Positions 9,271 to 34,475 of a stretch of 64,000 bases of DNA are shown in pieces; the stretch's first letter is position 1, and each line of letters starts with the position of its first letter. Below the pieces are notes generated by a model. The model was not told the origin of the DNA. It did no database searches and saw only the letters and a list, made by a program, of their open reading frames with translations. This DNA comes from Candidatus Poribacteria bacterium. GTDB taxonomy: Bacteria > Poribacteria > WGA-4E > JAJDTR01. The stretch lies in NCBI GenBank assembly GCA_965222225.1, contig CBDCTK010000002.1, positions 3,136,001 through 3,200,000 on the forward strand, in the 5' to 3' direction. Made by a program: the position numbers and the translations under genes.

Positions 9271-11244
9271 ATGATTAGAAGGCTTCATCCCGATTTTCAC
9301 ATTCCTGAGTATGTAACGAGTGTGGCTTCGGAGTTTGATGGCGATGATTTTGCCGATTCGCTGGTTGATGCACACATAGATTCGGTCGTCATATTCGCCA
9401 AGTGTATGTACGGATTGGGATATTGGAACACGACGACTGGTAAGCGTCACCCCGGGTTAGGTGAGGCGGATTTCTTCGGCGAAGCCACGGAGGCGTGCCG
9501 TCGTCGCGGTATTGAGGTGCTGGCTTATTTTTACCCTCTTATCGAAGCTGCGCTTGATGACGACGATAAATGGCAACAACGAGATCAAGAGGGAAAACCG
9601 TGTCGATTTCAGTGTCCGAATTCGGAATATACGGAAGCATTTCTACTACCCCAGATGAGGGAAGTGACTCGGAATTATCCGATTTCGGGTTGGCATGTGG
9701 ACGGAATTGTCTTGACCTCTGGTGGCTGTTGGTGCGATCGATGTCGCACGCTCATGGAGGATGAAGGAACGGACGCGAATGTACCCGAAGCGGTGCAGGA
9801 ATTTTCTCGGCGTACGATTGCCAGACTCGCCCAACGAATGACTGAAGCGGTGCGCCCGGAACGTGACGGGCTTATCCTCAGCTACAACAATCTTGTAAAG
9901 ATAGGTTGCTATCCGCAAGTTCAGTGGTCCGATGTCGTAGACATAGAAGTTTATAACGTCTTACAAGGCTTGAACTTCAACTTCAGTAGGGACGTGCTGT
10001 ACCACGAGGACATCGGTGCGATGAGAGCTTCTGTGTTTAGTCGACACATTCGCACAATTGGGCGCGACTTCGCTGTCACAACGTGCTGTCGGACACGCGG
10101 CGTTGCGGTGTACGGATCGGTATCCACTGCCGAAGAGTTACGCTATAGCGCGGGACTAGGGCTGGCATTAGGAGGATACTGCCAATTCATAAATGAAATG
10201 CTTCCCGAAGGAAAGATGGAGCCTCCACTTCTCACCCGCGTAAAAGATGCGTACCAGTTCGTCAAAGAAAGAGAACGCTGGTGCATCGGGGCAAAGCCGG
10301 TATGTCATACCGCGGTTTTGGGCGCCACCGAACCGGGAACGGGCGAGGCAGCCTGCGTCCAAGGATCGCTTTCTGGGCTTATGGGGGCGGCACGTCTCAT
10401 GAAAGCGTCTCACCTGCCGTTTGATGTCGTAGATGAGAATGCGGATCTTTCCCCCTACAAGCTAGTGATACTACCGGAAACAGAGGTGACCGATCCCGAT
10501 GCGCTCGCTCGGTTACGCGAATACGTGCGAAACGGAGGCGTTTTACTGGCAACGGGAGACGCCACAATCGGAGAGGATGGGCAACTAGGGCTGTCGGATG
10601 TCTTCGGCGTGACATGTCAGGGAAAAGGTGATGACATCTCCTATTTTCAACTCGGCACACGCCTTTCTGCGAATCTGATAGATATGATTCGAGTGGTGCG
10701 GGGGGAATGGTTGCGCGTTAAGCCGGCCGCCGGTGTTGAACGGTTGGCGGAAATTGTGCGGCCTCGACTTGCGGACGCAGGTTTGCCGATTGGCCATGGG
10801 AAACCCCCTGAAAAGGAGGATTCGGGTTGGCCCGCACTTGTTCGAACTCAATTTGGGGATGGATGGGCAGCGTATTCTCCGGCGCCAATCTTCGCGGACT
10901 TCGACGAAGCACCCGATGAGGAACAACGGTGCTTCCTAAACAATATCGTGGAGTTGGTCGCCCCGAGCAGTGAGAGACCCATGCTCATTCCGGATTTGTC
11001 CCCCTCCGCCGAGATTTCATTGATGACGTTAGATGGAATGTGGGTTCTTCACATCCTAAGGGGAGGGGAGACAGCGCCACCCGAATTGAGAGATTTGGCA
11101 GTAACGCTGCGGCCCGATTTTGAGCCAAGCCGCGTCTATCTTGCTCCAGAGCAAGAGCCTATCCCCTTCCATTTCGAGGATTCAACACTACAGTTGACGC
11201 TGCCCCGCGCGGGAAGTCACACAATCGTGGTGTTAGAACCCTGA
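9271..11244 (+). CDS. Putative glycoside hydrolase (GHL6/alpha-fucosidase-like TIM barrel plus beta-galactosidase trimerisation-like domain)
   Basis: LHPDFH, FAKCMYG..Y, HPGL...D..GE...AC...GIEVLAY, GWHVDG and CWCDRC; later LSPYKLVILPE...YVRNGGVLLATG. Confidence 0.75.
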   Translation: MIRRLHPDFHIPEYVTSVASEFDGDDFADSLVDAHIDSVVIFAKCMYGLGYWNTTTGKRHPGLGEADFFGEATEACRRRGIEVLAYFYPLIEAALDDDDKWQQRDQEGKPCRFQCPNSEYTEAFLLPQMREVTRNYPISGWHVDGIVLTSGGCWCDRCRTLMEDEGTDANVPEAVQEFSRRTIARLAQRMTEAVRPERDGLILSYNNLVKIGCYPQVQWSDVVDIEVYNVLQGLNFNFSRDVLYHEDIGAMRASVFSRHIRTIGRDFAVTTCCRTRGVAVYGSVSTAEELRYSAGLGLALGGYCQFINEMLPEGKMEPPLLTRVKDAYQFVKERERWCIGAKPVCHTAVLGATEPGTGEAACVQGSLSGLMGAARLMKASHLPFDVVDENADLSPYKLVILPETEVTDPDALARLREYVRNGGVLLATGDATIGEDGQLGLSDVFGVTCQGKGDDISYFQLGTRLSANLIDMIRVVRGEWLRVKPAAGVERLAEIVRPRLADAGLPIGHGKPPEKEDSGWPALVRTQFGDGWAAYSPAPIFADFDEAPDEEQRCFLNNIVELVAPSSERPMLIPDLSPSAEISLMTLDGMWVLHILRGGETAPPELRDLAVTLRPDFEPSRVYLAPEQEPIPFHFEDSTLQLTLPRAGSHTIVVLEP

Positions 11245-11409
11245 GATTTTCAGTCATTCACGGATTGAGTTAGAGAGCTAAGCGTGCGAGAACAACCAAC
11301 TTTGACCCTCCACGTCAAGCATGTAGTTGAACACGGAAAGCGCTTTGCGTTCTATAGGATTTCTTGGTAATTGCTTTAATCTGTTCGTTGCGAGGAGGTT
11401 TTCGATTCT

Positions 11410-12177
11410 ATGGCTGAAGTTGACATAGATCTTGAATTGTATCATCGCCAGGGCTTCTTGGCGGGGTTCCAAATCTTTGAGGAGGATGAATGCCCGCGGT
11501 TATTGGAGCTATATTGGCGGTTACGCAAGCTATTGCCGTCCGGTATGTCGACGCAAGAGATGGACTGGTGGCATGCCACGGATAGAGAATTGTGGGAACT
11601 TTGCAAGCATCCCAAAATCTTAGATTATGTTGAATCAATTTTGGGACCGGATTTCTTCCTATGGGGCACCCAATTCTTTAGCAAGGAACCCGGAGACGCC
11701 AACACAACCCCCTGGCACCAAGACGCCTTTTATTGGCCGCTGTCACCGCACAATGCCGTCACGGTGTGGCTCGCTTTTGCCGATAGCGATGAAGGAAACG
11801 GAGCAATGATGGTCGTACCGGGGTCGCATCGCGCCGGTAAATTGAAGTATCGTAAGACGACACGGGACTCGGATGTTCTCGACATGGTGTTAGAACATGG
11901 CGAGTTCCACGAAGCGGAAGCAGTTCCGCTTATTTTGAAGGCGGGCCAAATCAGCTTGCACGATGACAACATCATCCATGGCTCCGCACCGAATCATTCC
12001 GACCGGCTGCGCTGCGGTCTCACTATGCGATATTCTGCCGGCGAGGTGCGTGGCGACCTGTCGGTATGGCCATTCTTCAAGGCATTTTGGGTGCGCGGCG
12101 TGGACCGGTGGGGACACAATCCGGTTGGTGTGCCGCCGAAGGGAGAAATGACGCACTACATCCAAGTTGCCGGTTAA
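11410..12177 (+). CDS. PhyH-family dioxygenase
   Basis: FFSKEPG, PWHQD, TVWLA, NGAMMVVPGSH and HGSAPN.SDRLR. Confidence 0.92.
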   Translation: MAEVDIDLELYHRQGFLAGFQIFEEDECPRLLELYWRLRKLLPSGMSTQEMDWWHATDRELWELCKHPKILDYVESILGPDFFLWGTQFFSKEPGDANTTPWHQDAFYWPLSPHNAVTVWLAFADSDEGNGAMMVVPGSHRAGKLKYRKTTRDSDVLDMVLEHGEFHEAEAVPLILKAGQISLHDDNIIHGSAPNHSDRLRCGLTMRYSAGEVRGDLSVWPFFKAFWVRGVDRWGHNPVGVPPKGEMTHYIQVAG

Positions 12178-12285: not shown

Positions 12286-13287
12286 ATGATAAGACGCAGT
12301 TGTCCGAGTACACCATCTCATACTACAGAAAACCGCCTTGCCTTTGTTCTGATTCTAGCCTTGGCATTGATGAGTATCGAGCAGGGCGTCCAGGCACAGA
12401 TTGCCTTTTCGTCGGATCGCGGCGGAGATGTCGACATCTATGTGATGGATGAGGATGGAAAGAACGTGGTGCAACTCACCAATCACCCGCGAGTCGACTC
12501 TAGTCCAGCTTGGTCTCCAGATGGCAGACGAATCGCGTTTAGTTCGTTGCGGGATGAACCACCGAATACTCATGGAAACTCGGAAATCTATATCATGGAT
12601 GCGGATGGTGGCAATCCCATGCGGTTGACTCAGGAACCCCAAATCGATACACTGCCCGCCTGGTCACCGGACGGAAAACGGATTGCATTTGCCTCCAACC
12701 GACATGGAACTGGCGACATATATTTGATGAACGCTGCCGGCGGGAATGTGACGCGTCTTACCCATGATGATACGAATGGTGTTTCATACGATTGGGCTCC
12801 TGCATGGTCGCCAAACGGACGGTTCATTGCCTTTGAATCCACCCGCGGCGGTCGCGGATCCGATATTTGGTTGATGAAGCCCGATGGAACTAAACCTATC
12901 CAATTAAGCAAACACGCTGGCCATGATACTTCGCCCGCATGGTCACCGGACGGAATACAGATTGCGTTTGCCTCTCGAGATGGGAAGAACTTCACTTGGG
13001 AAATCCATCGCATAGATGTAGATGGTGGCGGCATAAAGAATCTGACGAACAATTTAGCAAATGACAAATACCCCGCATGGTCACCGGGTGGAGAGATGAT
13101 TGCTTTTAGCTCTGATCGGGATGGAGATTCTGACATTTACGTGATGAACCCCGATGGTGAGGATGTGTTTAGGCTTACAGATCATCCGGCATACGACTTT
13201 ACTCCATCTTGGTTCCCCGGTACGTTAGCGGTTTCGCCGCGAGGAAAGTTGCCAACTCAATGGGCGGCTATCAAGAGCAAACGGTAG
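12286..13287 (+). CDS. Secreted TolB-like PD40 beta-propeller protein
   Basis: Signal peptide ending VQA; five PAWSP(D/N/G)G..IAF repeats plus a final PSW; tail LAVSPRGKLPTQWAAIK. Confidence 0.9.
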   Translation: MIRRSCPSTPSHTTENRLAFVLILALALMSIEQGVQAQIAFSSDRGGDVDIYVMDEDGKNVVQLTNHPRVDSSPAWSPDGRRIAFSSLRDEPPNTHGNSEIYIMDADGGNPMRLTQEPQIDTLPAWSPDGKRIAFASNRHGTGDIYLMNAAGGNVTRLTHDDTNGVSYDWAPAWSPNGRFIAFESTRGGRGSDIWLMKPDGTKPIQLSKHAGHDTSPAWSPDGIQIAFASRDGKNFTWEIHRIDVDGGGIKNLTNNLANDKYPAWSPGGEMIAFSSDRDGDSDIYVMNPDGEDVFRLTDHPAYDFTPSWFPGTLAVSPRGKLPTQWAAIKSKR

Positions 13288-13485
13288 AAGTACATCGCGT
13301 GGTATGCCTATCAACGTGGTTCAATCAAGCAGTGGGCGATGGACTTTACTGCTATCAAGGAATATGCCCCGGATTCTTGAGTAGGAATTGCCTAAAAACG
13401 GACGCTGCAATCTGCAATACCTCGGAGAGTTAGCCACAATTAGCGCCTTTATTGGTCGTGAAGGAAATTGTAGATTGCATCAAGT

Positions 13486-15441
13486 TTGAGGGTTTTCGCG
13501 CGTATGCCCGATAACAAGCCTAAGAGAGAAGTAGGTGTCACCGGAAGAGCTGTCTGTATTGCCTTAGTCCTAATTCCACTTAATTGTTATTGGTGTATAC
13601 GGCAGGGGGAAATATCGTCCAATACCCCTACAACGCTTTCCCTCATATTCACCGCCGTATTTTCGCTTTTCTTTCTGACGATAATCAACACGTTCGTTCT
13701 CCGGCGGTTCTTCACCCGATTCGCTCTATCGCAAGGCGAATTTTTGACAATCTACATCATGATATGTTTGGCTTCAATCATGAGTGGATTTGATACAACT
13801 CAGGTTTTTTCCGCCGTCATCGGCCATGCGTTTTGGTTCTCTACGCCAGAAAACGAGTGGAAGCAGCTACTGGGCCCATATCTTCCGAGTTGGCTCGCAG
13901 TGTCGGACATGAAGGCACTTGAGGGATATTACGTAGGGGGCTCAAGTTTTTATCAACCCTCGTTTATCAAGAAATGGTTCAAACCGGTCCTGTTTTGGTC
14001 GACATTCTTGGTCGCCATTGCGTGGGTGGCGCTATGTTTTAACACCCTTTTGAGGAAACAATGGGTAGAAAGAGAGAAACTCGCATATCCCATCATCCAA
14101 ATCCCGCTTGCTGTAACCACGGGCAGCGGTTTACTCACATTATTCAGAAGTAAGCTCTTTTGGATTGCTTTCATAGTCGCAGGAAGTCTTGATACGCTAA
14201 ACTCTTTGCATGCGCTCTTCCCCAGCATCCCCGGAATCCCAAATCGCGGATTAACAATCCACCAATTTTTCACCGAAAAACCTTGGAGCGCCGTAGGCAT
14301 TCTCAGAGTTGAACTGATGCCATTCAGCATCGGTATGGCTTTCTTTTTGCCTTTGGATCTATCCTTTTCCGTCTGGTTTTTATTCCTATTTCAGAAGATA
14401 TTGAAGGTGGCGTTCAGCGCGCTGGGAATCAGGCCAAGTCAATTTTATATCGGGTTCTATGAAGAATTATTGCCGTATCATAGCCAGCAAACATCGGGCG
14501 GGTATTTTGCGCTGGGGGTCTTGGCGTTACTGAAAAGCCGGCGGCACCTGTTACGGGTGTGCAAGTCAATCTTCGGAGTGAAAGGCGGCGACGAGGATGC
14601 TTCGGAGCCGATGGGTTATAGGACGGCATTCTTGGGAATGCTCCTTGGATTCGCTTTCTTGGCTGTTTTCTGTCTCAAAGCCGGAATTACTTTATGGGTC
14701 ATCGCCCTGTTTTTTCTCTTCTTTTTCGTGATGTCCATCGGGATTGCGAGAATGCGGGCAGAACTAGGACCACCTTCGCACGATGTGTGGTCAGCCTCCG
14801 CCGACCAGATGATAATGTCCGCCTTCGGGTCAAGGCGTGTCGGTTCGCCTAACATCGCAATGTTCACGTTATTTTACGGTATCACGCGCTCCCAAAGAAA
14901 TGAGCCCATGCCCCATCAGTTGGAAGGCTTCAAGATGGCGGAGAGGACGGGCATTAGCGGCAAGCGATTGGTATATGCGATGATGCTGTCCAGTGTTCTT
15001 GGCGCGATATTGGGGTTCTGGATTATTCTTGATAGATCGTATAAACACGGCAATGACTTCTGGTTTGCGGGCGAGATATTCGCCAAGACTCAGCGGTGGA
15101 TGCACCATCCGACTGACACCAAACTTGACGAAACGGTGGCGATGGTTTTCGGCTTCGGCTTCACCATGTTTCTAGCCGCGATGCGTCGCTTTCTCTGGTG
15201 GCCCATTCATCCGATTTCTTACCCCTTGATTCTGCTCGACTATACGGTGCGCATGATGTGGATTAATTTTATCATCGCCTGGTTCGTTAAGTGGATAGCG
15301 CTAAAATATGGCGGATTGAAAGTTTATCGAAACCTGATCCCGTTCTTTTCAGGTTTACTGCTGGGGGAATTTATCATTGGAGGCGGATGGAGTTTAATAG
15401 GTATGATTTTCAATGTACCCGTGTATGCCTTCTGGCATTGA
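13486..15441 (+). CDS. DUF6785/DUF6784-type polytopic membrane protein, copy 2
   Basis: RKQWVEREKLAYPI, FFLPLDLSFSVWF, RMRAELG and WWPIHPISY; true start may be ATG 13504. Confidence 0.8.
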   Translation: MRVFARMPDNKPKREVGVTGRAVCIALVLIPLNCYWCIRQGEISSNTPTTLSLIFTAVFSLFFLTIINTFVLRRFFTRFALSQGEFLTIYIMICLASIMSGFDTTQVFSAVIGHAFWFSTPENEWKQLLGPYLPSWLAVSDMKALEGYYVGGSSFYQPSFIKKWFKPVLFWSTFLVAIAWVALCFNTLLRKQWVEREKLAYPIIQIPLAVTTGSGLLTLFRSKLFWIAFIVAGSLDTLNSLHALFPSIPGIPNRGLTIHQFFTEKPWSAVGILRVELMPFSIGMAFFLPLDLSFSVWFLFLFQKILKVAFSALGIRPSQFYIGFYEELLPYHSQQTSGGYFALGVLALLKSRRHLLRVCKSIFGVKGGDEDASEPMGYRTAFLGMLLGFAFLAVFCLKAGITLWVIALFFLFFFVMSIGIARMRAELGPPSHDVWSASADQMIMSAFGSRRVGSPNIAMFTLFYGITRSQRNEPMPHQLEGFKMAERTGISGKRLVYAMMLSSVLGAILGFWIILDRSYKHGNDFWFAGEIFAKTQRWMHHPTDTKLDETVAMVFGFGFTMFLAAMRRFLWWPIHPISYPLILLDYTVRMMWINFIIAWFVKWIALKYGGLKVYRNLIPFFSGLLLGEFIIGGGWSLIGMIFNVPVYAFWH

Positions 15442-19393: not shown

Positions 19394-20642
19394 GGGACTT
19401 AGTAGTTAACTGCTTTTTGGTCGATTTGCTTGCTTTTCTCTTCTTAATGTACAATCATTTTAGACAGTGTTCGGAATCTTGATTCACACTAAAATACATC
19501 TCTATAAGAGAGAAATGGAGGCATATCATGTTGACCAAGCGTTTGTACATGCTCGCGGGAGCATTGCGGGTTATCTGCGGGATTTTAATTTCCAACACTA
19601 TGGGATTTTCAGCACACCATGATGTTGTCGTTGACAGAATATACCGATAGCCAAACAATTCATGTGGCTCAGGTGAAGCATTCATCAAAAAATCTTATGA
19701 AAATCTCATCATCTTTTCTGCGATTATATTTCCAGCAAGACTCCATGATATACAGTGGCAGCCACTTCTTGCTGTAGTGATGATGCGTTCCGTAGAATGA
19801 CCTCTTGACACAAGCCCAAAACGACTCGATGGTGTTGGTGTGAGTTACGCCGTCCTCAGAAACATATCTCTCTTGGTGATGGATAACATGTCTTTCGATA
19901 TCTTCGTCCAGACTATTGTAAGAGCGAAATTCATCAGTCATAAGAATAGACTCATCGGGTGAGACATTGCTAAGGATGAATTCTCTGATATTTTCACCAG
20001 ATAGAACCTTCATGAATTTAGCAACCACCCGACCGCCTCTCTCGACTACGCCGATGACGGGAGATTTATTTGTGCCTCTACCTCTCTTAGATTTTGCTCT
20101 GGGTTTGCCGCCGACATAGGTTTCGTCCGCTTCAACTATCCCTTTCAGCAATTCATCACTATCACTCATTTTCTCACGGAGGCGCATTGCCATATACCAA
20201 GCGGACTTTTGATTCATGTCCAAGTCACGAGCAAGCTGACAACTCGATATGCTTTTCTTGGCATTGGAAAGAATTGAGATAGCCAAAAACCATTTCTGGA
20301 GAGGTATCTTGGTACCATGGAAGATGGTTCCTGCTGTAGCCGAAAAGCTAGATTCACAATCGTAGCAATTCCAACCAGTAGTAATGTCGTTTTTGTTCTT
20401 GCGTCCAACTTTTTCACTGCCACAGTGGATACAGCAAACACCGTCCTTCCAACGTTTTTCCTCTATAAATCTGAGACAAGATTCTTGATTTGGAAACTCT
20501 TTCATAAGATTCAAAATGTCCATAGCAAACTCCTACGAGAAGAATAGTCACTATGGACATCTACGTGTGACGAAAAGATTTACGACAGGGTACCAAGTTT
20601 TATGTTTGTCGTCAGTCTAAAAGCTACAAGCTACTAATTCCG
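19394..20642 (-). mobile_element. Complete IS1595-family insertion sequence (1,249 bp)
   Basis: Imperfect TIRs GGGACTTAGTAGTT (left) and AGCTACTAATTCCG (right); exact 8-bp target duplication ATCTCTTA at 19386-19393 and 20643-20650. Confidence 0.9.
19669..20523 (-). CDS. IS1595-family DDE transposase
   Basis: Zinc ribbon CIHC...CYDC, GTIFHGTKIPL.KWF, EADETYVGG, MTDE..SY and HTNTIESFW. Confidence 0.95.
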   Translation of the reverse strand: MDILNLMKEFPNQESCLRFIEEKRWKDGVCCIHCGSEKVGRKNKNDITTGWNCYDCESSFSATAGTIFHGTKIPLQKWFLAISILSNAKKSISSCQLARDLDMNQKSAWYMAMRLREKMSDSDELLKGIVEADETYVGGKPRAKSKRGRGTNKSPVIGVVERGGRVVAKFMKVLSGENIREFILSNVSPDESILMTDEFRSYNSLDEDIERHVIHHQERYVSEDGVTHTNTIESFWACVKRSFYGTHHHYSKKWLPLYIMESCWKYNRRKDDEIFIRFFDECFT

Positions 20643-23373: not shown

Positions 23374-24228
23374 ATGTTCAAGGCTTTACAGCCCGGCGCC
23401 ATCGGCATCCGGGCAGGCATGCAGGAATGCCTACGGTTGGCAAAAAATGCTGGTTTCGAAGGTATGGACCTAGCGATTAGCGAGGCTAACGACCTCGCAC
23501 AGGCAAATTCCGTGGATTACGTCAAGGATCTCTGGTCTGCGTCCGGATTGAAGATCGGGGGATGGGGACTTCCGGTAGATTGGCGCGGTAGCGATGCGGA
23601 ATACAACGAAGATCTTCGAAAACTTCCGCGACTGGCAAGACTTGCCGCAGACCTTGGGTGTTTTCGCTCAACAACCTGGATTCTTCCCTCTGGCGAAATA
23701 CCGTTTAAGGAGAACTGGGATTTTCACGTCAAACGCCTACGGCCGGCGATGGAGATTTTGAAGGAGTATGGACATCGGTTCGGCTTAGAGTTTGTGGCAC
23801 CGGCAACCAGGCGAAAGGATGGGGAGTTCCTTTTCCTTCACACAATGGATGCAGTGCTCGGGCTTGCCGCCGCAATCGGCACCGGCAACGTTGGTTTACT
23901 GTTCGACGCGTGGCATTGGTATACTAGTCACGCCACGCTTGATGACGTTAGGAAACTCGGCAAAGGTGATGTCGTGTACGTCCACATCAACGACGCCCCT
24001 GCAGGTATCGATCGAGACGATCAACTCGATCTTGTCCGATGCCTCCCCGGCGAGACCGGTGTGATTCCAGTCGCAGAGTTACTCCAAATCCTGGACGATA
24101 TCGGTTACGACGGGCCCGTAGTGCCGGAGCCGTTGAGCGAGAAAGTCTATGCAATGGAGTCTCAGGACGCCGCCAACGCCACCGCGCGATCACTGGATAA
24201 GGTGTGGCAGCTGGCGGGATTTGAATAG
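23374..24228 (+). CDS. Sugar phosphate isomerase/epimerase (AP-endonuclease-2 TIM barrel)
   Basis: GLEF, GLLFDAWHW, VHIND, RCLPGETG and GYDGPV.PE metal-ligand pattern. Confidence 0.88.
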   Translation: MFKALQPGAIGIRAGMQECLRLAKNAGFEGMDLAISEANDLAQANSVDYVKDLWSASGLKIGGWGLPVDWRGSDAEYNEDLRKLPRLARLAADLGCFRSTTWILPSGEIPFKENWDFHVKRLRPAMEILKEYGHRFGLEFVAPATRRKDGEFLFLHTMDAVLGLAAAIGTGNVGLLFDAWHWYTSHATLDDVRKLGKGDVVYVHINDAPAGIDRDDQLDLVRCLPGETGVIPVAELLQILDDIGYDGPVVPEPLSEKVYAMESQDAANATARSLDKVWQLAGFE

Positions 24229-24248: not shown

Positions 24249-26274
24249 ATGAACTACGAACAATGGAATCAAGCCATCATCTCGTACTTCTTTGAAGAGT
24301 GCAACCCGGGTGAGATTGTCTTTCTGCAAACAGATGATGAAACACTGGCTGAAATCGCTGAATTGTCCAATTTTAACATAGAGAATCCTGCGGATAGTTT
24401 AAAACAAGCCGTCAGAGGCAAATTCATTTGTAACGGGAGTCGGGTCAATCTGTGGGATAGCGTTCCGGAAAGTTTTTGGAAAATCCGTCTGCCCCAAGAA
24501 GCGCCTCAAGTTGCCTTCCTCGCTTTATCAGTCCTTGCCGCATCGCAGATGAGTTCTACAGAATAGTATTTCACATACAAATTACTATGCACGATTAAAT
24601 GAACTCTTGTTTGACCTACTCATTCAAAGACGCCCGAAGGGACTAGAGACCGCCTATTTTAAGGAATGCTGGATAAAGCTTCAACGATGGGCAGAAAATC
24701 GACATCATGTCAATCTCTATCTGACCGAAGGTTCATCAAACCGTAAGTATGTTTGGTACCCGATTTCACAATGTCTAATTAGCGAACACGATCGACAGAG
24801 GATTTACCGTTTCTTTTCCAAGCATAATCTTACGCCGTTCTCAGAGCCACGTGATAATGAATTATATACTCAACTACACTATTGGACATCATCGCCTCAG
24901 GGATCTTCAAAAATAGGTCGCTACCTCACCAACCAATATTACAAGGAATCCATTCTCAGCCAGGTTAAATCAATTCTGAAACATTGGGATGGTCAAGTCC
25001 CGCCAGATGAAACACCTATTGGTACAAAACACAGAAAGGCACCAATCAGCGTTCAGTTCTGCTTTGGGCACATTTCTGATACCGTGGAAGTTCGTTACTG
25101 GTTCCCAAGACGTGGGAAGGACAACATAACCTGCAAAGCCAACCCTCTAGGCATTCAAATACTACAAACATTTGACTCGGAAAAATGGTTTAGGCCTGTT
25201 GTTGATGAGAAAAGCGCGTTTTGGAATTTGCAGAATCGCTGGGAAGTGACCACCGATGAAACTAAACCAATAATTTACTCCCTGCATCCCTCCGACGTCT
25301 GGGTTTTCCGAGAAGATCCAGAACGTGACGATGGTTGGCTTTTTCAGCGGAACATGCAACTGTACGAGGACCACTTGATAGTGTTCCGCGAGAAACTCGT
25401 TGAGCACGTTCTCCATTGTCTAAAACAGACTTGCGCGCTGAGCGATGACAAACCAAATCGCATCCATGATGGCTGGCTCTATATGCGAGCCAAACCGATC
25501 AGACTTCAACCTTTTTCTACGAGGGAACTCTGGCGACTTTCTGTGATTTCTAGTAAACAGATTCGGCTTATTGGCGGATTGTCAGTTCAAGACCAGCACC
25601 GACGCAGAGCATATCTCAGTATTTGCCTTCCTGATATTTTCGTTCCTAATCTCGGACTTTCAAGTGAAGTGCCTTTGAAAATTGACGCGCACGCCTACCC
25701 CGTTGGTGAAAATAGGCTCGTAAGGTTCGAAAACCCGTTGTCACCTCGAGTTTATCAACTTTCCTATGGGACACAATCAAGGGCGCTATGGGTCATAGGA
25801 CCGGAACGCGACATTGAATACGAAAGCCAAACTCTAATGGCAAACTTATCTCATGATAGGATAGCGATTCCGATGTATTCTGTAGAGAAGATTTCAGAGA
25901 GATCGAAGAAATTCGGAGTGTGGATTGCAGGTGCCAAATTCTTTGGGAAAAACGTTCCAGAACTTACATGGGACGATGTGCAGACCGAACCCCAAATTAA
26001 AGAAGATAATGGCTTATTGCCTAAATCTCCTGCTGAGCTTATTTCAGCAGTCGTAAAGGCAGCAATCGAACTGAGGAAGGACAAGGCTTCGATAAAAGAG
26101 TGGTTAGATCAAGTAATCGAACATCTAGATCAGGATATCGCGTTACGAGCTCTTGTTGAAAAGAAATTGTGGCACTATCGTGAAACGGCTTTGTCATCTG
26201 CAAATCTCCGCAGCCGAGAAGGTAGGTATCCATGGAAGCGAAACCGTACCCAGAAAAAAAACGGAGACATTTAA
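24249..26274 (+). pseudogene. Putative Druantia DruH-like protein, N-terminal part; frameshifted near 24553-24563 (ORFs 24249-24566 and 24607-26274)
   Basis: MNYEQWNQAIISYFF...VFL start. The second frame is open from 24553 and reads NSISHTNYYARLNELLFD, so removing one base joins both ORFs into about 674 aa. DruH likeness is from recalled motifs and operon context. Confidence 0.6.
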
Positions 26275-28160
26275 TAGACCGGGGCAATGAAGACTTTATT
26301 GCGTTCTTGGAACAAGTAGAGGCAACAAAAGAAGGACAGCGGGCTCTAAAAAGTCTACTTCCAACCAAGGTGAAAGGATTCCGACCTGGGCATGCACCAT
26401 TAAAAAGAAAAGTCCCAATATTGACAATTGAGTTGAAAAAGGAAGGTGAACTTTCCAACTCCTCCTCCCTGATTTGGGCCTCCTTCAAAAACGCATGGAC
26501 CGCATGGGTTAGGTCGCACGATGAACTGAATCCAATCTTGCTTGAATTGGACAATGCAGCGGATTTCGACGAGAAACACGAGTGTACAGCACTTCCGAAC
26601 AGCGAAATTGATATGCAGTGTTTCAAACACCTGCTGGAAGCAAGTGAAAACTATTTGGTTGATAAGGAGACGATTGAACGCTTTTACGATTACGGCTATT
26701 TCCTTCCTTCTGAAGAAATCGAAGCTATCATCAAACAAGCACGCCCCCGAGCAGAAATCGAACGACAGCGACGAATAGTGGCACTTCCTGCACTCGTTGA
26801 CCAGCTATTTGAAGATATTAACTCTCTCAATTCGAAGCTTTCTGCAATTGAGTCCGCCGACATAACGACAAAGACACTCAACCAGCGAACAGCAGAAGTG
26901 ATTGACTCTTTCGAACGTCAACTTTCCGATACAAAGGCAAACTTCAATAAAAGCGTTGGGCAGTTAAAGCAATCAATCAATTCCCGACTTTCCAAGGTAG
27001 AAGATTCGGTAAAGTCTCTTGAAACCCAACTGGCGGATGGCCAATTTGTCGAAAGTGTGAGGCAGGAAATCGCACAGCTTGGTCAGACTATCGAAGAAAG
27101 TGTCCACTCACTTCGGACCCGGCAAGATGGATTGGACAAGAAATTCGCTGAAATCGAGACAGATCGAGAAGAACAACATCGAATGACCAACGCACCAAGA
27201 ATTGCCAATCAAGCCGTGCGGATTGGAGAACGTTATAACTCCCAACTAAGAGAAGACAATGAACATTACTTAGATGAGATTGATTACTTGTGGAATTTTG
27301 CAGGTTGTCTAAGAAGATTTGGCGTAACGAACTCCGGCGAGACGGGAGATGAAATGGCGGCGGCCATCCACATTGCCTTGAAGACCTTTCCTGCACTTGC
27401 AGTCAACGACACGCGAATATTCAAGGTATGGCAACTGATGTGTGGCAATCACTTGCACGTTACGGAAATCGGTGTAGAAATGGGGTGGCTTGGTCTTCAA
27501 GATTGGTTCCCTGAACTTTTTTATCAAGAGTGTTTTGGGGAACAATTAAGGCGGATGGACCTCGACATCTCAATTAGGAGAATGCTTGAAATTGGAGATA
27601 TGCCGTGGGCAATTCATATGAGTAATTGTGACCGGTCATTTCCAGAAAGTTACCTTCCAAGATTTCTCGACTGGATTGGGGAGTTATCCGACGGTGAGAT
27701 CAGGATTTTCCTCACACGTTCTTCTGGGGTGAATCGCTGTGGGACGACTCAAGATGTTTATGCTCGAGTGGCACGTCTTCTTGCACCTGAGAAGCTAGAG
27801 CCAATTGAAGCAAGGAACTTACAACCTCGCGACATCCTTACGTGGCATGAGTGGACATCGTGGTGCCAACCGAATGATGCTGTCAGTCAAGTTGAATTTC
27901 TGAATCAACTTCAAGAAGCAATTGAAAATGCCGGTACTCAAATTCCGCTGTCGCTTCTTTGTGAAATCCAACGTTATGTTCAACTTTCACATGGTATTTT
28001 GTCATCGTCTAAAGCTCTTGATTGGGCATTAACCTTACGTCTCCTGCCGTGGATTGTATACCACCGCGAGCTGATTGATACCGCGCAGAATTTGATCCAT
28101 CGGGAAAATCGGGAATTGACACACTTCCAAGATGGATTACTACAAGCACGAGAGAAATGA
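26232..28160 (+). CDS. Coiled-coil protein with a degenerate McrB-like AAA+ C-terminal domain lacking Walker A
   Basis: Heptad-rich segment at about aa 185-310, then IHIALKT, VEMGWLGLQDW, IHMSNCDRSFPESYLPRFL and ALDWALTLRLLP in McrB motif order; no GxxGxGK[ST]. Confidence 0.6.
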   Translation: MEAKPYPEKKRRHLIDRGNEDFIAFLEQVEATKEGQRALKSLLPTKVKGFRPGHAPLKRKVPILTIELKKEGELSNSSSLIWASFKNAWTAWVRSHDELNPILLELDNAADFDEKHECTALPNSEIDMQCFKHLLEASENYLVDKETIERFYDYGYFLPSEEIEAIIKQARPRAEIERQRRIVALPALVDQLFEDINSLNSKLSAIESADITTKTLNQRTAEVIDSFERQLSDTKANFNKSVGQLKQSINSRLSKVEDSVKSLETQLADGQFVESVRQEIAQLGQTIEESVHSLRTRQDGLDKKFAEIETDREEQHRMTNAPRIANQAVRIGERYNSQLREDNEHYLDEIDYLWNFAGCLRRFGVTNSGETGDEMAAAIHIALKTFPALAVNDTRIFKVWQLMCGNHLHVTEIGVEMGWLGLQDWFPELFYQECFGEQLRRMDLDISIRRMLEIGDMPWAIHMSNCDRSFPESYLPRFLDWIGELSDGEIRIFLTRSSGVNRCGTTQDVYARVARLLAPEKLEPIEARNLQPRDILTWHEWTSWCQPNDAVSQVEFLNQLQEAIENAGTQIPLSLLCEIQRYVQLSHGILSSSKALDWALTLRLLPWIVYHRELIDTAQNLIHRENRELTHFQDGLLQAREK

Positions 28161-28169
28161 ATATCCTCG

Positions 28170-29060
28170 ATGGGTACAAACATTCTTGATGGGCTCCTAT
28201 ACTACCTATCGCACTTGGGACGGTTAAGTTTGGAAAAATTCAAAGATGCGGCCAAGAATCTCACTGAAGGACAGCCCCGGTTTAAAGATTCCACATACCT
28301 GAACACACTCGCACGACTAGGCCATCTTGATTATGACCCAATGAAACTAGACCGTCGTATTGTTATTGCGCCTTCCGTTCTCGTTGAAACAGCCGTGAAG
28401 GATCGGTATGTTTTCGTTGGAAGTCGAACTCCCGATTTTCTTGAAGAAATTGAAAGGTGCATTTCCGAAGCAGGCGGAAAATTGGAAAGGATTTCAGAAC
28501 AATATGCTCCAACCTCAATTGTGTTAAGCGAGTTGTCAGAAACTTCATTCGCGGAAATCGAGAGTTTGGGCATTCACATCAGTTGCGCATTTTCGGCGAG
28601 ACTTTCAAGCATACTACCATCTCCAGAACGCACCAGTTTTTTGAAAGATGAAGTTCTGCTTCCCGATTCAATCAACAGATTCAATATCAGAACCTTGGAG
28701 TACGAATCTGATAACTACTCATTGCGTAGCGACGGGCTTTACGAAATCCCTAAATTTGGCCGGAATGTCTACGTCTTGAAATCTGGCACCGACCAACGCA
28801 TTGTCCCACGCGACTGGGGAGAGTGGCTGTTTCTTAATAGCCGCAGTAGAACGGTAGGATTAATCTCGTATGAACGCCAATCTCAAACCTGGTGCGTCAA
28901 TAGGAAGTTGCATGTACCACTAACATTGGATCGGTGTGCAACGCTCTGTTCAGGATTCCCTCCACAATTGAGAGACGATTTGTTTTGCTATGCGGACGTG
29001 CCAGCCGGCATAGCATACCGTTTGACTAAAGCGCTTTATCAGAATTGGGAGGTGGTTTGA
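28170..29060 (+). CDS. Putative DruH-like C-terminal domain encoded as a separate gene
   Basis: LLYYLSHLG, LARLGHLDYD, IAPSVL, FVGSRT and LDRCATLCSGFPP; the stop overlaps the helicase start (TGATG). Confidence 0.6.
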   Translation: MGTNILDGLLYYLSHLGRLSLEKFKDAAKNLTEGQPRFKDSTYLNTLARLGHLDYDPMKLDRRIVIAPSVLVETAVKDRYVFVGSRTPDFLEEIERCISEAGGKLERISEQYAPTSIVLSELSETSFAEIESLGIHISCAFSARLSSILPSPERTSFLKDEVLLPDSINRFNIRTLEYESDNYSLRSDGLYEIPKFGRNVYVLKSGTDQRIVPRDWGEWLFLNSRSRTVGLISYERQSQTWCVNRKLHVPLTLDRCATLCSGFPPQLRDDLFCYADVPAGIAYRLTKALYQNWEVV

Positions 29061-32000
29061 TGTCAGACCCGTTTGAAACGTATGATTTGCTCTGTGACTC
29101 CTATATTCGCTACATCCAGACGATTTTGGGCTTTAACAACAATAAGCTAGAAGAGGAACGTGACAAACTACTGCGGGAAAACGGGCTGCTTTTTCAAGCT
29201 CCACGTTTTGAACCTATCATGCCTTATCCCTCTTCGGGGCAACCGCTCTCGCAGTTATGCAACCATCTAGGCCTGGTCGCTGACATAGGTGATTTTCTCG
29301 CTCAGGGTGGAGATGACGGGCTTTCACCGAAAGACCGTCCACTCTATGAACACCAAGCCTCGGCTTTTGAATCGTCAGTGATTGACGGAAAGGATGTCGT
29401 TGTTACAACAGGCACAGGTTCCGGAAAGACAGAATGCTTTTTGCTACCGATTTTCAGTTATCTCATCAAAGAATCAACAAACTGGAACAGCCGTGGTCTA
29501 CGGAATGCAAATCATCCTTGGTGGCAAAGCCTTGAACGCAGAACAAGTGAGTATGTTCCACGGCGTCAAGGAGAAAACCGGCCTGCAGCCCTTCGCGCGC
29601 TAATATTGTATCCACTCAACGCGCTTGTTGAGGACCAACTTATGCGTCTACGGCGCGCTTGCGATAGTCCTGAAGCACGCCGCTGGCTCGATCGCCATCG
29701 GGGCGAGAATCGGTTTTACTTTGGTCGTTATACCAGTTTGACGCCGGTTTCAGGTCACAAAACTAGTAGAAACCTATCGAGACTCCAACGCCAACTGGAT
29801 CGGGCACACATGCAGGCTACAAAAGTACATGATTCCGAGGAAAAGCGCTTTTTCTTCCCGTCCACTGAGGTTGACACGGCTGAGATGTGGTCGCGTTGGG
29901 ACATGCAAAAATACCCGCCTGACATCTTGATTACGAACTATTCAATGCTGAACATCATGCTCATTCGCGACTTAGAAGAGCCGATGTTTGAAAACATCAA
30001 AAAATGGCTTGAACAACAGGACAGTCTTTTCCATCTTGTTGTTGATGAACTGCACTCATACCGTGGCACTGCAGGATCAGAGGTTGCCTATCTTCTTCGC
30101 ACCCTATTTGACCGCCTCGGCCTCGATCCCGATTCACCGAAGCTTCGAATCATCGCGTCAAGTGCTTCACTTGAAGATGATGAAGGACAAGGAGAAGAAG
30201 CACGAAAGTATCTTCGTCAATTCTTTGCCCGAAGAAAAGACTTTAGAATCATCGGTTCGCCGCTCCATCCCGATCGAAGTGTCGAACTTCAGAAATGTCT
30301 TAAACACACCGCACAATTCGAGAAGTTTGAGCGAGACAAAGATTCTACTCAGTTGGATAAGATTCTGAGCGAACTTGATATAAAATCTGCTGTGGCACAA
30401 CTTTGCCATCACAATGGGAAGTTGCACGCTTCAACGCTGGAAGAAATGGCAGAAAAAGCAAACGAAGCTACCTCGACACTGGTAACTGAACCTACCGTCC
30501 GCGGTCTTATTCGCTATCTAATCGAACAAAAAGATGTGACGACAAGTCAAGCCTTATTACCACTCCGCGTACACTACTTCTTCAAGAATTTTGAGGGATT
30601 GTGGGCATGCAGCAACCCGAATTGTCAAGGTGAAGGAAACCAGGCTCTTATTGGAACAATGTTTGCAAATCGGCGTGTTTTGTGTGATGAATGCGGTTCA
30701 CGAGTGCTAGAGTTGCTAATCTGCCAAACCTGCGGAGATTTATTCCATGGCGGCTACAAACAGTCAATTTCGGAGATTTCACCTGGCTGGTACCTAAGTG
30801 GTGATTCTCAAGAATTAGAGGGATTGCCTGAAAAAGGGATTAGAAATCGAAACTACGGAACGTACGCCATTTTTTGGCGGAGCAACGGGCGAACTCCCGA
30901 TTCACTTGAGTGGACGCAAGATAAGATCAAAAGACGATGGACACCGGCACAATTCTCTCCTTCCGAGGGAACGCTTATGCCCAATTCATATGACTACAAT
31001 GGCTACTTCTACAAAATTGACCGCCCGGATGAGTCATGTTCAGAGATTCCCAAGTATTGTCCATATTGCGGCGATGCATGGGCTTTCTCAGGGGAAAGGA
31101 TCATTGTTAACGGGAAAGAGCAGGTGTATTCCCCAATTCGTCATATGGGAACAGGTTTAGAAAAAGTAATCCAGATTCTCATCCAAACCCTGCAGACTAC
31201 TGTAAAATCGCAATCCAAACGAAAGACCATTATTTTCTCCGATAGCCGACAGGATGCGGCAAAACATGCCGTTGGAATTCAGTGGTCACATTATCAGGAC
31301 ATGATTCGGCTAATTGCGGTCAAGGCTATGCGAAAACATAGCGATAATAAAGATTTGAAAACCATTCGTGATTTTCAAAGAAAAAGGCTCGATTTTCGCG
31401 TTGTTCAAAAGGCAATTCGTAACTTGCGCGAAAAATTCCCAGATAAACGACAATTTCTTGATTCTCTTGAGGATGCTTTCGCTGACGAAGAGTCTCTGAC
31501 ATCAGATCAAGAAGGTCAACTTGCAGCACTAGAAAGCAATTATCCCTTCACGGCACTTCAGAAGGCGTGTTTTGATGAGTTCATCAATTTAGGCATGAAT
31601 CCCGGGGGGCATGGAAAGAATGTCGAAAATATTGACGAAGGACGTAACTGGGAGGCCCTCTGTGATTGGGAAAGCAATCCGGTAGCGCTGCGCCCAACAA
31701 GATTGCTTGAACGCCACCATGAACGCCTAATTATGAGAATAGAGTCTGAATTTAAGAGAATAATTACCGAACGGATTCTGTTTGCACGAAAGGACATGGG
31801 GCTGGAAGGACTTGGGCTCGCTTGGTGCGAACCCAGTATTGAAACTGGCATGTGGCCAATCGAAAAGATTAATCCCGTTGAAATGATGGCAGCAGTCACG
31901 CGAATTCTCGGCGAACGAAGATACACCGAGATATACCGTCCTTATGATGAACAACCGAGCATGCCAAAGTTTCTTGAGGATTACCTCGCGGGCTCTGCAG

Positions 32001-34324
32001 ATAAAATTGGATGCTCTTTAGACGAATTAGCGGCAGTAGTTCGCGAGCAAGTTGAAGCATCCATTAGTTTCAAGGGTTTCCTTTTACGTATTGAGAATCT
32101 AAACTTTCGACGTCCTCAGGAGGGGGTAATCTACCGGTGTAACACTTGTAGACGCAAGCATTTGTATAAAGCAGGGGGAATTTGTACAAATACGAAGTGC
32201 CTTAGTGAATTGGAAGCAATTGATCGAACCGAGGACACGATGGAAAAGTATGGGGGATACTACGCCTATCAGGCGGATCCCGACAGGCTGGGGATTCAAC
32301 CTTATCGTTTCCACTGCGAAGAATTATCAGCACAGACCGATTCAGAGGAACGCCCAAACCGTCAACGGTGGTTCCAAGACGTAATCCTAAAAGGTGAAAT
32401 TCGCCACACAGATGAAATAGATCTCCTCAGTGTGACGACAACGATGGAAGCAGGGGTTGATATCGGAGGCCTATCAATGGTATTGATGGGAAATGTACCC
32501 CCACAGCGTTTTAACTATCAACAGCGCGTTGGACGGGCGGGACGACGCGGCGATTCAATTGCCTATGCTCTGACGCTGTGTCGCTTGCGTACCCATGATG
32601 ACCATTATTTTACTCACACTGATGAAATAACAAATGCGTCAACCCTCTTGCCATATTTGGATCTACGTAGCTTAGATATTCTCAAGCGTGTTTTGTCGAA
32701 GGAGATTCTGTACAATGCTTTCCGGCAAACATCAGGTTTGGCAATCTACGACGAAAGGAATGTGCACGGTGAATTTGGCAAGGTTTCCGATTGGGCAGTG
32801 AATCGAGACACGTTCGTACGATGGATAGCAAATAACAGAGAAAAAATTGAACAGATTGTACAATTACTTGTAACGGAAACTGAATTGGGGGCCAAAAAAG
32901 AAGAACTGTCAGAGTGGGGATTGAACAAGCTTATACATGAGATTAACGGCCGTGTTGAAGTCCATCCTTTTGAGGAAGACGATCTGAGCCAGTCGCTTGC
33001 GGAATCCGGTATTTTGCCAATGTTTGGCTTTCCAACGGGCGTTCGTCTTTTGTACCATGATTGGCCAAAGCGATCCAATTGGCCTCCTACATCAGGTGTC
33101 GTCGATCGGGACATTGAGATAGCCATCAGCGAATTCGCCCCTGGATCAGAGACCGTCAAGGATAAAAAAATTCACACGTCAATCGGCATTGTATCTTTTA
33201 GGCCAGAAGGGGATCGCATAGTAACTGAACGTGGCATTGCTCATGAGAAATCAATCGGATTCTGCCCCGATTGTAAGGCAATTTTCTTCGGTGATTCTGC
33301 GAACGAAATCGACTGCCGAATCTGTGGCTCTGAGACATTTAAGCAAATTCAAGCGATAGAACCAAAAGGTTTTTTGACGAATTTCAAACCGGACGACGCG
33401 CATGAGTCTTTCAACTGGACTCCGCGATCTACCTATTCCCGCCTCCCTTCTGACGTGTCCGCAGTCCTGCAGAAAGATTTTAATTTCCGGTGGGGGACGG
33501 AAAGCAAACTAAAGCTAGTCTCGGTCAACACTAATGGCGATCGCTTGTTTGTACTCCAGAAACAGCGTGGAAGTGAAGCACTCGTATCGGCTGAAGTCTG
33601 TCGTGGCTTAGCTGCCAAGAATGACGCATACGCGCTTAACGAGGAAACTGACTTGATTGGGGATGAGTGTAGCGTGGCACTTTTCGCCGCCAAAACAACT
33701 GATGTATTGTTAATTGAGGTTGATGAAATTCCAGTTGGTCTGATGTCCAATCAGAGAAACGAATACTGGCGAGCTGCGCTTTATTCGTTTGGTTTTCTGT
33801 TCCGCCAGTTTGTGGCGAGTCGACTCGACATCTCTCCAAATGAGTTGCGCGTTGAAATCCGTCCCGTGGAGGAGGGTGAAAATCACAAACAACAGGTATT
33901 TCTCGCGGACTCGTTGGCAAACGGTGCGGGATACTGCCGCCATTTAGGCGAGCGCGATGGCCAAGGGAGACCGTTCCGGTTGATTCGACTCCTAAACGAT
34001 ATGAATGATCCCGCGCAGGATTTTGCAAAAGGATTGATTGCACATGCAAACGATTGTGACTCGTCTTGTTATACCAAGGGATGTATGCGTGACTACTCCA
34101 ATATGCCCTATCATCCGTTTCTTGATTGGCGGTTAGGCCTGGATGTGGCACGACTCTGTCTCGAAAAAGGCTATCAGATGAATCTTCAAGGGAACTATTG
34201 GGCATCGTTGGTCAATCGGGTCGAGAAAAACCTCATGGAGCTCTTTCCAGATCTTGAGCGCCATGATCGCGACGGCGCACCCGTCTTCAAGGCTCAAATA
34301 CAGAATACATCATCCGTTAGCTGA
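29060..34324 (+). CDS. druE: Large SF2 DEAD/DEAH helicase with zinc-binding inserts and C-terminal DUF1998 (Druantia DruE-like)
   Basis: TGTGSGKT, YPLNALVEDQ, PDILITNYSML, DELH, SAS, FSDSRQDAA, TTTMEAGVDIG, QRVGRAGR and DSLANGAGY...CDSSCYTKGC. ATG 29060 follows GGAGG. The true end is probably TAA 34424 via a frameshift near 34290. Confidence 0.85.
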   Translation: MSDPFETYDLLCDSYIRYIQTILGFNNNKLEEERDKLLRENGLLFQAPRFEPIMPYPSSGQPLSQLCNHLGLVADIGDFLAQGGDDGLSPKDRPLYEHQASAFESSVIDGKDVVVTTGTGSGKTECFLLPIFSYLIKESTNWNSRGLRNANHPWWQSLERRTSEYVPRRQGENRPAALRALILYPLNALVEDQLMRLRRACDSPEARRWLDRHRGENRFYFGRYTSLTPVSGHKTSRNLSRLQRQLDRAHMQATKVHDSEEKRFFFPSTEVDTAEMWSRWDMQKYPPDILITNYSMLNIMLIRDLEEPMFENIKKWLEQQDSLFHLVVDELHSYRGTAGSEVAYLLRTLFDRLGLDPDSPKLRIIASSASLEDDEGQGEEARKYLRQFFARRKDFRIIGSPLHPDRSVELQKCLKHTAQFEKFERDKDSTQLDKILSELDIKSAVAQLCHHNGKLHASTLEEMAEKANEATSTLVTEPTVRGLIRYLIEQKDVTTSQALLPLRVHYFFKNFEGLWACSNPNCQGEGNQALIGTMFANRRVLCDECGSRVLELLICQTCGDLFHGGYKQSISEISPGWYLSGDSQELEGLPEKGIRNRNYGTYAIFWRSNGRTPDSLEWTQDKIKRRWTPAQFSPSEGTLMPNSYDYNGYFYKIDRPDESCSEIPKYCPYCGDAWAFSGERIIVNGKEQVYSPIRHMGTGLEKVIQILIQTLQTTVKSQSKRKTIIFSDSRQDAAKHAVGIQWSHYQDMIRLIAVKAMRKHSDNKDLKTIRDFQRKRLDFRVVQKAIRNLREKFPDKRQFLDSLEDAFADEESLTSDQEGQLAALESNYPFTALQKACFDEFINLGMNPGGHGKNVENIDEGRNWEALCDWESNPVALRPTRLLERHHERLIMRIESEFKRIITERILFARKDMGLEGLGLAWCEPSIETGMWPIEKINPVEMMAAVTRILGERRYTEIYRPYDEQPSMPKFLEDYLAGSADKIGCSLDELAAVVREQVEASISFKGFLLRIENLNFRRPQEGVIYRCNTCRRKHLYKAGGICTNTKCLSELEAIDRTEDTMEKYGGYYAYQADPDRLGIQPYRFHCEELSAQTDSEERPNRQRWFQDVILKGEIRHTDEIDLLSVTTTMEAGVDIGGLSMVLMGNVPPQRFNYQQRVGRAGRRGDSIAYALTLCRLRTHDDHYFTHTDEITNASTLLPYLDLRSLDILKRVLSKEILYNAFRQTSGLAIYDERNVHGEFGKVSDWAVNRDTFVRWIANNREKIEQIVQLLVTETELGAKKEELSEWGLNKLIHEINGRVEVHPFEEDDLSQSLAESGILPMFGFPTGVRLLYHDWPKRSNWPPTSGVVDRDIEIAISEFAPGSETVKDKKIHTSIGIVSFRPEGDRIVTERGIAHEKSIGFCPDCKAIFFGDSANEIDCRICGSETFKQIQAIEPKGFLTNFKPDDAHESFNWTPRSTYSRLPSDVSAVLQKDFNFRWGTESKLKLVSVNTNGDRLFVLQKQRGSEALVSAEVCRGLAAKNDAYALNEETDLIGDECSVALFAAKTTDVLLIEVDEIPVGLMSNQRNEYWRAALYSFGFLFRQFVASRLDISPNELRVEIRPVEEGENHKQQVFLADSLANGAGYCRHLGERDGQGRPFRLIRLLNDMNDPAQDFAKGLIAHANDCDSSCYTKGCMRDYSNMPYHPFLDWRLGLDVARLCLEKGYQMNLQGNYWASLVNRVEKNLMELFPDLERHDRDGAPVFKAQIQNTSSVS

Positions 34325-34475
34325 CTTCAATGGGCCCGAATTCATCAACATTTTTGATATTATCCGACGAGTGAGTCGCGTTATGAATCAAGTCGGACCA
34401 ACTCTAAATAGAAACGCTGTCTAACCTTTCGAGTCGTGCTATGGAGTGTAATCAAGGGAACCTGGACAAACCGCC

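Follow-up and report, generated by a model that had tools for sequence, protein, structure and literature searches.

In a 64,000-nucleotide stretch of the genome of a Candidatus Poribacteria bacterium (GCA_965222225.1, contig CBDCTK010000002.1, positions 3,136,001 to 3,200,000; hereafter the window), four genes on the + strand form an operon at window positions 24249-34324, with junctions that overlap or are 9 nt apart. An earlier reading, made from the nucleotides and their open reading frames (ORFs) without database searches (the sequence-only reading), had already described four co-oriented, coupled genes. Comparison with the Druantia families of the PADLOC collection indicates, with a probability of about 0.78, that the block is a Druantia type IV operon (druF, druL and druE) with a divergent homologue of the type I protein DruC encoded between druF and druL, and that this druF-druC-druL-druE (F-C-L-E) order is the standard form of Druantia in the sponge-symbiont phylum Poribacteria. 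The putative anti-phage system of type IV is already catalogued by PADLOC; the DruC-like gene inside a DruF/DruL/DruE4 operon is the unusual part. The genes and the lesions found in them are listed in Table 1.

Table 1 Features of the operon in the window (window coordinates) and of the nuclease gene in related loci (locus coordinates).
Feature	Position	Strand	Basis or remark
druF (DruF4-type; gene 1), pseudogene in this strain	24249..26274	+	PADLOC DruF4 on both fragments; orthologue ORFs
druF 5' fragment	24249-24566	+	105 amino acids
druF 3' fragment	24607-26274	+	555 amino acids; other frame from ~24565, first start codon 24607
druF frameshift, one extra A	~24562	+	DNA alignment with the L002 orthologue
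Lost druF stop	26227..26274	+	Sequence comparison: TAT here, TAA in L002; 15-codon extension overlapping the gene 2 start
druC-like gene (gene 2)	26232..28160	+	642 amino acids; DruC1 model, hhalign, AlphaFold2 (AF2) model
druL (DruL4; gene 3)	28170..29060	+	296 amino acids; PDLC00057
druE (DruE4; gene 4), 3' end truncated by frameshift	29045..34324	+	1759 amino acids; PDLC00051, Pfam, motifs
druE 14-nt deletion near 34303, then out-of-frame remnant of the conserved C-terminus	34303..34424	+	Alignment with L002 and seven orthologue C-termini
Nuclease gene 3' of druE in relatives	L010:18385-19518; L014:18328-19461; L016:18411-19520; L019:20532-21662		Fragments in L011

Gene 4 matches the PADLOC model of DruE4 over nearly all of its length (residues 6-1733 on model positions 3-1742 of 1829; E-value 0, 1623.8 bits). 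Among the DruE models the scores fall from 1624 bits for E4 to 1516 for E2, 648 for E1 and 445 for the best E3. The Pfam domains of this superfamily 2 (SF2), YprA-like helicase are DEAD, Helicase_C and MZB/DUF1998, and the translation contains the motifs GSGKT, DELH and QRVGRAGRRG together with several Cys pairs. This agrees with the sequence-only reading, which had recognised an SF2 helicase of about 1,760 residues with Cys pairs and DUF1998 and had assigned the operon to the Druantia family.

Both fragments of gene 1 match the DruF4 model (PDLC00052; model positions 9-108 and 149-495 of 692; E-values 1.1e-11 and 1.1e-23), and DruF2 models match them as well. The intact orthologue in the related locus L003 matches DruF4 with an E-value of 1.2e-34, and druF is one ORF of 651-690 residues in 17 of the 18 related loci described below, so that the frameshift repair proposed for gene 1 from the sequence was borne out. 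Gene 3 matches DruL4 in full length (residues 7-294 on model positions 4-306 of 309; E-value 8.4e-21) and also fits the C-terminal positions 740-1000 of the 1030-position model of the long DruF2, PDLC00016 (E-value 4.4e-15). Similarly, residues 754-1004 of the 1013-residue DruF2 encoded on an Alisedimentitalea plasmid (L023) match DruL4, and hhalign aligned druF with the long DruF2 at 97.4%. As the DruF2 model and the Alisedimentitalea protein both include the DruL4 part, DruF4 and DruL4 together correspond to the long DruF2, a single chain of 1011-1030 residues. The proposal that genes 1 and 3 are two ends of one chain was therefore right in that such a chain exists and wrong in its name, since the chain is DruF2 and not DruH.

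The weak fold matches of the DruL model, a winged-helix-like region at residues 1-68 (Z 5-6) and an ACT/ferredoxin-like region at 69-149 (Z 7.2), were not used; the wide VIA fold search gave nothing at Z of at least 8, and no usable match to DruL was found in the protein atlas. NCBIfam returned only generic helicase and coiled-coil families. A relationship of DruF to YjiT, raised by a sub-threshold lead in the protein atlas (YjiT_N/YjiT_2nd, 0.87-0.88), was not borne out by sequence: neither the DruF hidden Markov model (HMM) nor hhalign matched yjiT of E. coli K-12, and the local Pfam copy gave no YjiT match. A separate observation concerns the zinc ribbon of DruE (residues 503-565), to which the start of the yjiV pseudogene of E. 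coli K-12 and the spacer before it (L035:12013-12213) show a 68-residue tblastn match (35% identity, E-value 8e-8). From this similarity yjiV, which lies beside mcrBC, may be what is left of a helicase of the DruE kind.

Gene 2 consists of an N-terminal helical domain (residues 1-170), a coiled coil (~173-341) and a domain of AAA+ fold (~347-641). Against the PADLOC DruC1 model it matches with an E-value of 1.4e-17 over residues 17-318 only, and its profile aligns with three DruC sequences at a probability of 99.9% (hhalign; E-value 6e-37, columns 3-484). In a joint alignment the Walker-B-region sequence NCDRSFPESY of gene 2 aligns with NRSAPExY of DruC, and GK[ST] is present in neither. When 1.84 billion representatives were searched exhaustively with the profile, 364 proteins were retrieved at E-values of at most 1e-3, of which only about six, with additional fragments, fit the profile over the greater part of its length. 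Second-tier relatives, 590-680 residues long, align with profile positions 1 to ~310; in 16 of 20 of these the DruC1 model matches nearly end to end, and in the other four no PADLOC model matches. Where the genomic context of such DruC relatives was available, they lie in type I operons, with the order DruA-B-C-D-E1 on Ralstonia solanacearum pUW163a (L024) and in metagenome L026 and DruB-C-D-E1-DruK in L028. For the distant gene-2-like proteins P0275, P0294 and P0381 no match was found in plasmids or viral contigs, and the profiles of genes 2 and 3 found only coiled coils or no match among PDB sequences. Based on these profile comparisons, gene 2 is a divergent member of the type I DruC family. 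This fits a preprint (Bell et al. 2025, PMC12458937) whose available text attributes to Druantia I and II inactivated coiled-coil homologues of CnuB, an McrB-like GTPase.

The AF2 model of gene 2, built from 25 sequences, has a pLDDT of 73; the N-terminal domain is confident and the helices at 173-341 are of low confidence. Residues ~347-641 are modelled as an alpha/beta domain with a helical lid. In VIA comparisons this last domain superposes best with the MoxR-type structure 2r44 (Z 13.9, root mean square deviation (rmsd) 3.8, 253 residues), followed by RavA (Z 11.9), BchI (10.6), BrxL (9.8) and MCM (about 8.5-9.6), compared with Z 7.5 for McrB 6hz4 (rmsd 3.8, 148 residues); the top Foldseek matches are MCM, RavA and RFC. 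The Walker A motif GxxxxGK[ST] is missing. In its place NDTRIF follows the strand 388-391, and the family consensus of 25 homologues at this position is xDTRIIKVW, which has no GK[ST]. The domain thus has an AAA+ fold that has lost the nucleotide-binding loop. In the sequence-only reading gene 2 was an extra subunit, a coiled-coil pseudo-ATPase; that description holds, and the idea of a new component gives way to that of a divergent DruC.

When genomes were scanned with the gene 2 family as the seed, the order F-C-L-E was found in 18 of 18 loci, all labelled Poribacteria, with gene 2 accompanied by druE in each. Identity of gene 2 in these loci is 42-78%, the flanking genes vary between groups of loci, and in most relatives the stop codon of druF lies 2 nt before the start of gene 2. 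Within the phylum the distribution of gene 2 is patchy: it was matched at E-values of at most 1e-3 in 34 of 176 genomes (~27 strong matches and 7 weak, coiled-coil-only ones) and in one of nine other genomes of the same genus. Outside Poribacteria, ten plasmid DruE loci from other phyla contained no DruC-like ORF. DruF together with DruL was found in seven of these, of which only L031-L033 count as independent, because the DruF and DruL HMMs built here contained the other four. A plain F-L-E order was seen in five plasmid loci, from Nostoc (with a dcm gene upstream), Calothrix, Deinococcus, Oscillatoria and Aphanizomenonaceae. No literature dealing jointly with Druantia and Poribacteria was found, and the figures or supplements of PMC12458937 and PMC8565338 may already show the order.

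The PADLOC definition of type IV Druantia requires DruE, DruF and DruL and the absence of both DruM and DruG, and 168 instances from 11 phyla were counted (Payne et al. 2021, PMC8565338). The operon, a variable accessory insert, agrees with this definition: it has DruF4, DruL4 and DruE4 in one orientation and coupled, and the DruG and DruM models of PADLOC match none of the five operon ORFs (the four genes, with druF in two fragments). It differs in the additional 642-residue DruC-like gene, which is not found in the five plasmid type IV loci inspected, and in the broken frames of druF and druE. The sequence-only reading knew of no named subtype with its order of genes; the genes match PADLOC type IV, and the DruC-like gene is not part of that type as defined in the available text of the paper. 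Like type I on pUW163a, the operon encodes a DruC-family protein two genes upstream of DruE, and type I DruC shares with gene 2 the N-terminal domain, the coiled coil and the Walker-A-less AAA+-like domain. By contrast, no PADLOC match to DruA, DruB or DruD was found in the operon ORFs, DruE is of the E4 type, and the C-terminal half of gene 2 has diverged beyond the DruC1 HMM.

Resemblance to type II lies in the closeness of DruE2 to DruE4 and in the correspondence of the long DruF2 to DruF4 plus DruL4; the long form is exemplified by the Alisedimentitalea plasmid, and classical type II on Agrobacterium pR76 (L030) has the order DruM-DruF2-DruG2-DruE. Unlike type II, the operon has neither a methylase nor a DruG, and DruG2 of L030 resembles neither gene 2 nor DruC nor DruL. 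With the view of Druantia I and II as 'Type IV CoCoNuT' systems (PMC12458937) gene 2 agrees in its coiled coil and its inactivated AAA+ domain. It differs, as far as the available text of that source goes, in that its best fold matches are to MoxR, RavA and BchI rather than McrB. Pfam detected no McrC-like partner, but at E-values of at most 0.1 it assigns DruF and DruL to no family, and the DruL model is too poor for its fold to be judged. The operon and type III (DruH-DruE) have in common a large helicase of the DruE family that carries a zinc-binding MZB domain, but the operon has no DruH match and the DruE3 models score far lower.

The sequence-only reading had proposed a type III-like system in which DruH was split into genes 1 and 3, with a new subunit between them. 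The sizes roughly fit (674 and 296 residues against about 1100 for DruH; 10.64898/2026.05.12.722862), and genes 1 and 3 do match the two ends of a single chain elsewhere, but that chain is DruF2, and the helicase scores 1624 bits on DruE4 against 445 on the best DruE3. The check proposed for this reading, namely which part of the DruH HMM each gene covers, came out empty: no DruH model matched any of the five operon ORFs at E-values of at most 0.01, the DruH, DruG and DruM models did not match gene 2, gene 3 or the tail of gene 1 even at E-values of at most 10, and the DruH3 family PDLC00038 was not found anywhere in the genome (94.87% complete). A match to other described Druantia components had been named as what would speak against it, and as the genes match DruF4, DruL4 and DruE4 the proposal fails on its own terms. 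At the level of HMM similarity the split DruH is already refuted, and it is now very improbable.

Two other explanations keep the components found here and interpret them differently, and both are unlikely to a similar degree. Gene 2 could be an unrelated passenger in a plain three-gene type IV operon, given that the PADLOC type IV definition requires only DruE, DruF and DruL (PMC8565338) and that five plasmid loci have F-L-E with no gene in between. This is difficult to reconcile with a position kept in 18 of 18 related loci though the flanks change, with the 2-nt spacing from the druF stop in most of them, and with the fixed place of the homologue DruC in type I operons. Alternatively, the operon could derive from type I by loss of DruA, with diverged DruB and DruD merely labelled DruF and DruL; the X-DruC-Y-DruE layout is that of type I B-C-D-E and the gene sizes are similar. 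Here hhalign gave probabilities of at most 1.3% for DruF with DruB and for DruL with DruD, with DruB and DruD profiles of only three sequences each, and the DruE is E4/E2-like rather than E1-like and the matches of DruF and DruL are specific. A type IV operon with a divergent DruC inside it is accordingly preferred.

Several points weigh against this assignment. The C-terminal half of gene 2 is out of reach of the DruC1 HMM, and its fold matches favour MoxR and RavA over McrB. DruF and DruL match no Pfam family at E-values of at most 0.1, and the AF2 model of DruL is poor (pLDDT 54.6). The sample outside Poribacteria, ten plasmid loci, is small, and because the search patterns for the 18 loci came from the clade itself F-C-L-E may exist elsewhere. 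The anti-phage role and every mechanistic step of the type IV assignment are drawn by analogy. Finally, six of 19 loci (the window and its 18 relatives) are broken or aberrant, which could reflect relaxed selection.

Two frame-breaking lesions, in druF and in druE, are present in this strain. The extra A in druF is left out in three runs from other studies (X3, 15.8 of 15.8; X11, 13.8 of 13.8; X16, 8.12 of 8.12) and retained in X1, which is probably the source sample (0 of 106.7 lack it); contigs of X1 also reproduce the window exactly near the druE deletion. Beyond that deletion the out-of-frame remnant carries HHPLADF...INIFD.IRRVS.VMN (the motif HHPLA...INIFD.IRRVS.VMN is conserved in seven orthologues), and its frame ends at 34424, which explains why the sequence-only reading had ended the operon there. 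In this genome the system has probably decayed in part or become inactive. Coverage of druF and of parts of the other operon genes by contigs from an RNA-library run is a weak observation, because carry-over of DNA is possible.

Four uninterrupted ORFs are found in 13 of the 19 loci; the damaged six are the window, L002, L004, L005, L019 and L015. In L002 druF is frameshifted. Insertion sequence (IS) genes lie inside druE in L004 (16100-17182) and L005 (15581-16500), both encoding DDE transposases (DDE_Tnp_1, DDE_Tnp_1_3), and gene 2 of L019 is disrupted by transposase genes of the IS1595 type and DDE_3 (10969-12175 and 12717-13625). In L015 (6526-12957) druE continues in frame, after about residue 1301, into an N6 DNA methylase of the Eco57I/TaqI_C type, giving an ORF of 2143 amino acids; this fusion may be a chimera or a real rearrangement, the former because the contig comes from a single-cell amplified genome.

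The operon is a strain-variable block with an insertion/empty-site polymorphism. Its flanks are unrelated metabolic genes, as the sequence-only reading had noted: of the ten flanking ORFs scanned, those upstream include two PhyH dioxygenase genes, a cyclase and a xylose-isomerase-like TIM barrel, and those downstream a HAD hydrolase and a GT9 glycosyltransferase. In four of the five same-genus genomes examined, the TIM-barrel and HAD genes adjoin, 88-306 bp apart, and the 10.2-kb operon occupies the site between them in the window and in L002 (genome G022). The fifth genome (G024, L049:4513-8220) has 3.7 kb of other cargo at this site, an FGE-sulfatase-like gene, a weak LolA-like gene and one unknown, so that variation at the site is not confined to the Druantia insert. 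Contigs of runs X11 and X16 end at window position 24228 and read like the empty-site spacer, and both runs also hold the operon, which suggests that occupied and empty alleles coexist in these samples. No integrase or repeats were seen at the operon borders. The GC content is 0.44-0.47 within the block and 0.50-0.53 just upstream, and a scan for promoters and terminators gave no more sites than in shuffled sequence. Also upstream, 3.7 kb from the operon, the window contains an IS1595-family transposase gene on the - strand (19669-20523; DDE_Tnp_IS1595 and zinc ribbon), related to one that disrupts gene 2 in L019.

Neither a methylase nor a PLD protein was found among the ten flanking ORFs, and the PADLOC methylase models did not match the five operon ORFs, in line with the earlier observation that both are missing. 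In four of the 19 loci a gene for a PD-(D/E)xK nuclease of 369-377 residues directly follows druE and overlaps its stop codon (Table 1). It matches Pfam PDDEXK_1 (E-values 4e-24 and 5e-26) and resembles the DruK-like gene that follows DruE1 in metagenome L028. The gene is absent at the window locus, and a query with the L010 protein found none in the genome.

The mechanism can be sketched by analogy with type III, in which DruE unwinds double-stranded DNA 3'-to-5' from 3' overhangs and DruH binds single-stranded DNA (10.64898/2026.05.12.722862). DruE4 would be the motor, a 3'-to-5' helicase loading on free 3' overhangs of phage DNA or on replication intermediates. The fusion of DruF and DruL in some type II systems suggests that the two may act as one sensor or DNA-binding unit, in the role of type III DruH. 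The DruC-like protein would be a non-catalytic coiled-coil/AAA+ scaffold that links DruF and DruL to DruE. The side facing DruE is likely the N-terminal half, which type I DruC shares, and the diverged C-terminal half is likely the part adapted to DruF and DruL. A complex prediction of gene 2 residues 335-642 with DruL scored 0.06 against a mark of 0.32 and gives no evidence either way. As the locus has no methylase, discrimination of self from non-self by modification would not be expected; the window locus likewise has no nuclease gene. In the published accounts, as far as their available text goes, experimental work on Druantia I, II and IV consists of one cited type I report.

The mixture of a type I component with a type IV set implies that accessory proteins are exchanged as modules around DruE. 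Tentatively, and at somewhat less than even odds, the DruC-type pseudo-AAA+ protein may be a portable adaptor, working with DruB, DruD and DruE1 in type I and with DruF, DruL and DruE4 here. If so, the F-C-L-E operon of Poribacteria, to which a DruK-like nuclease is added in some loci, would be an uncatalogued fifth architecture of Druantia, and would offer a natural experiment that tells the half of DruC in contact with the helicase from the half in contact with the variable partners. As a compact system of only four genes, of which relatives have intact copies, it would be useful for establishing the role of a dead AAA+/coiled-coil protein. It also provides an example of a strain-variable defence operon in sponge symbionts that is often inactivated by frameshifts and IS insertions.

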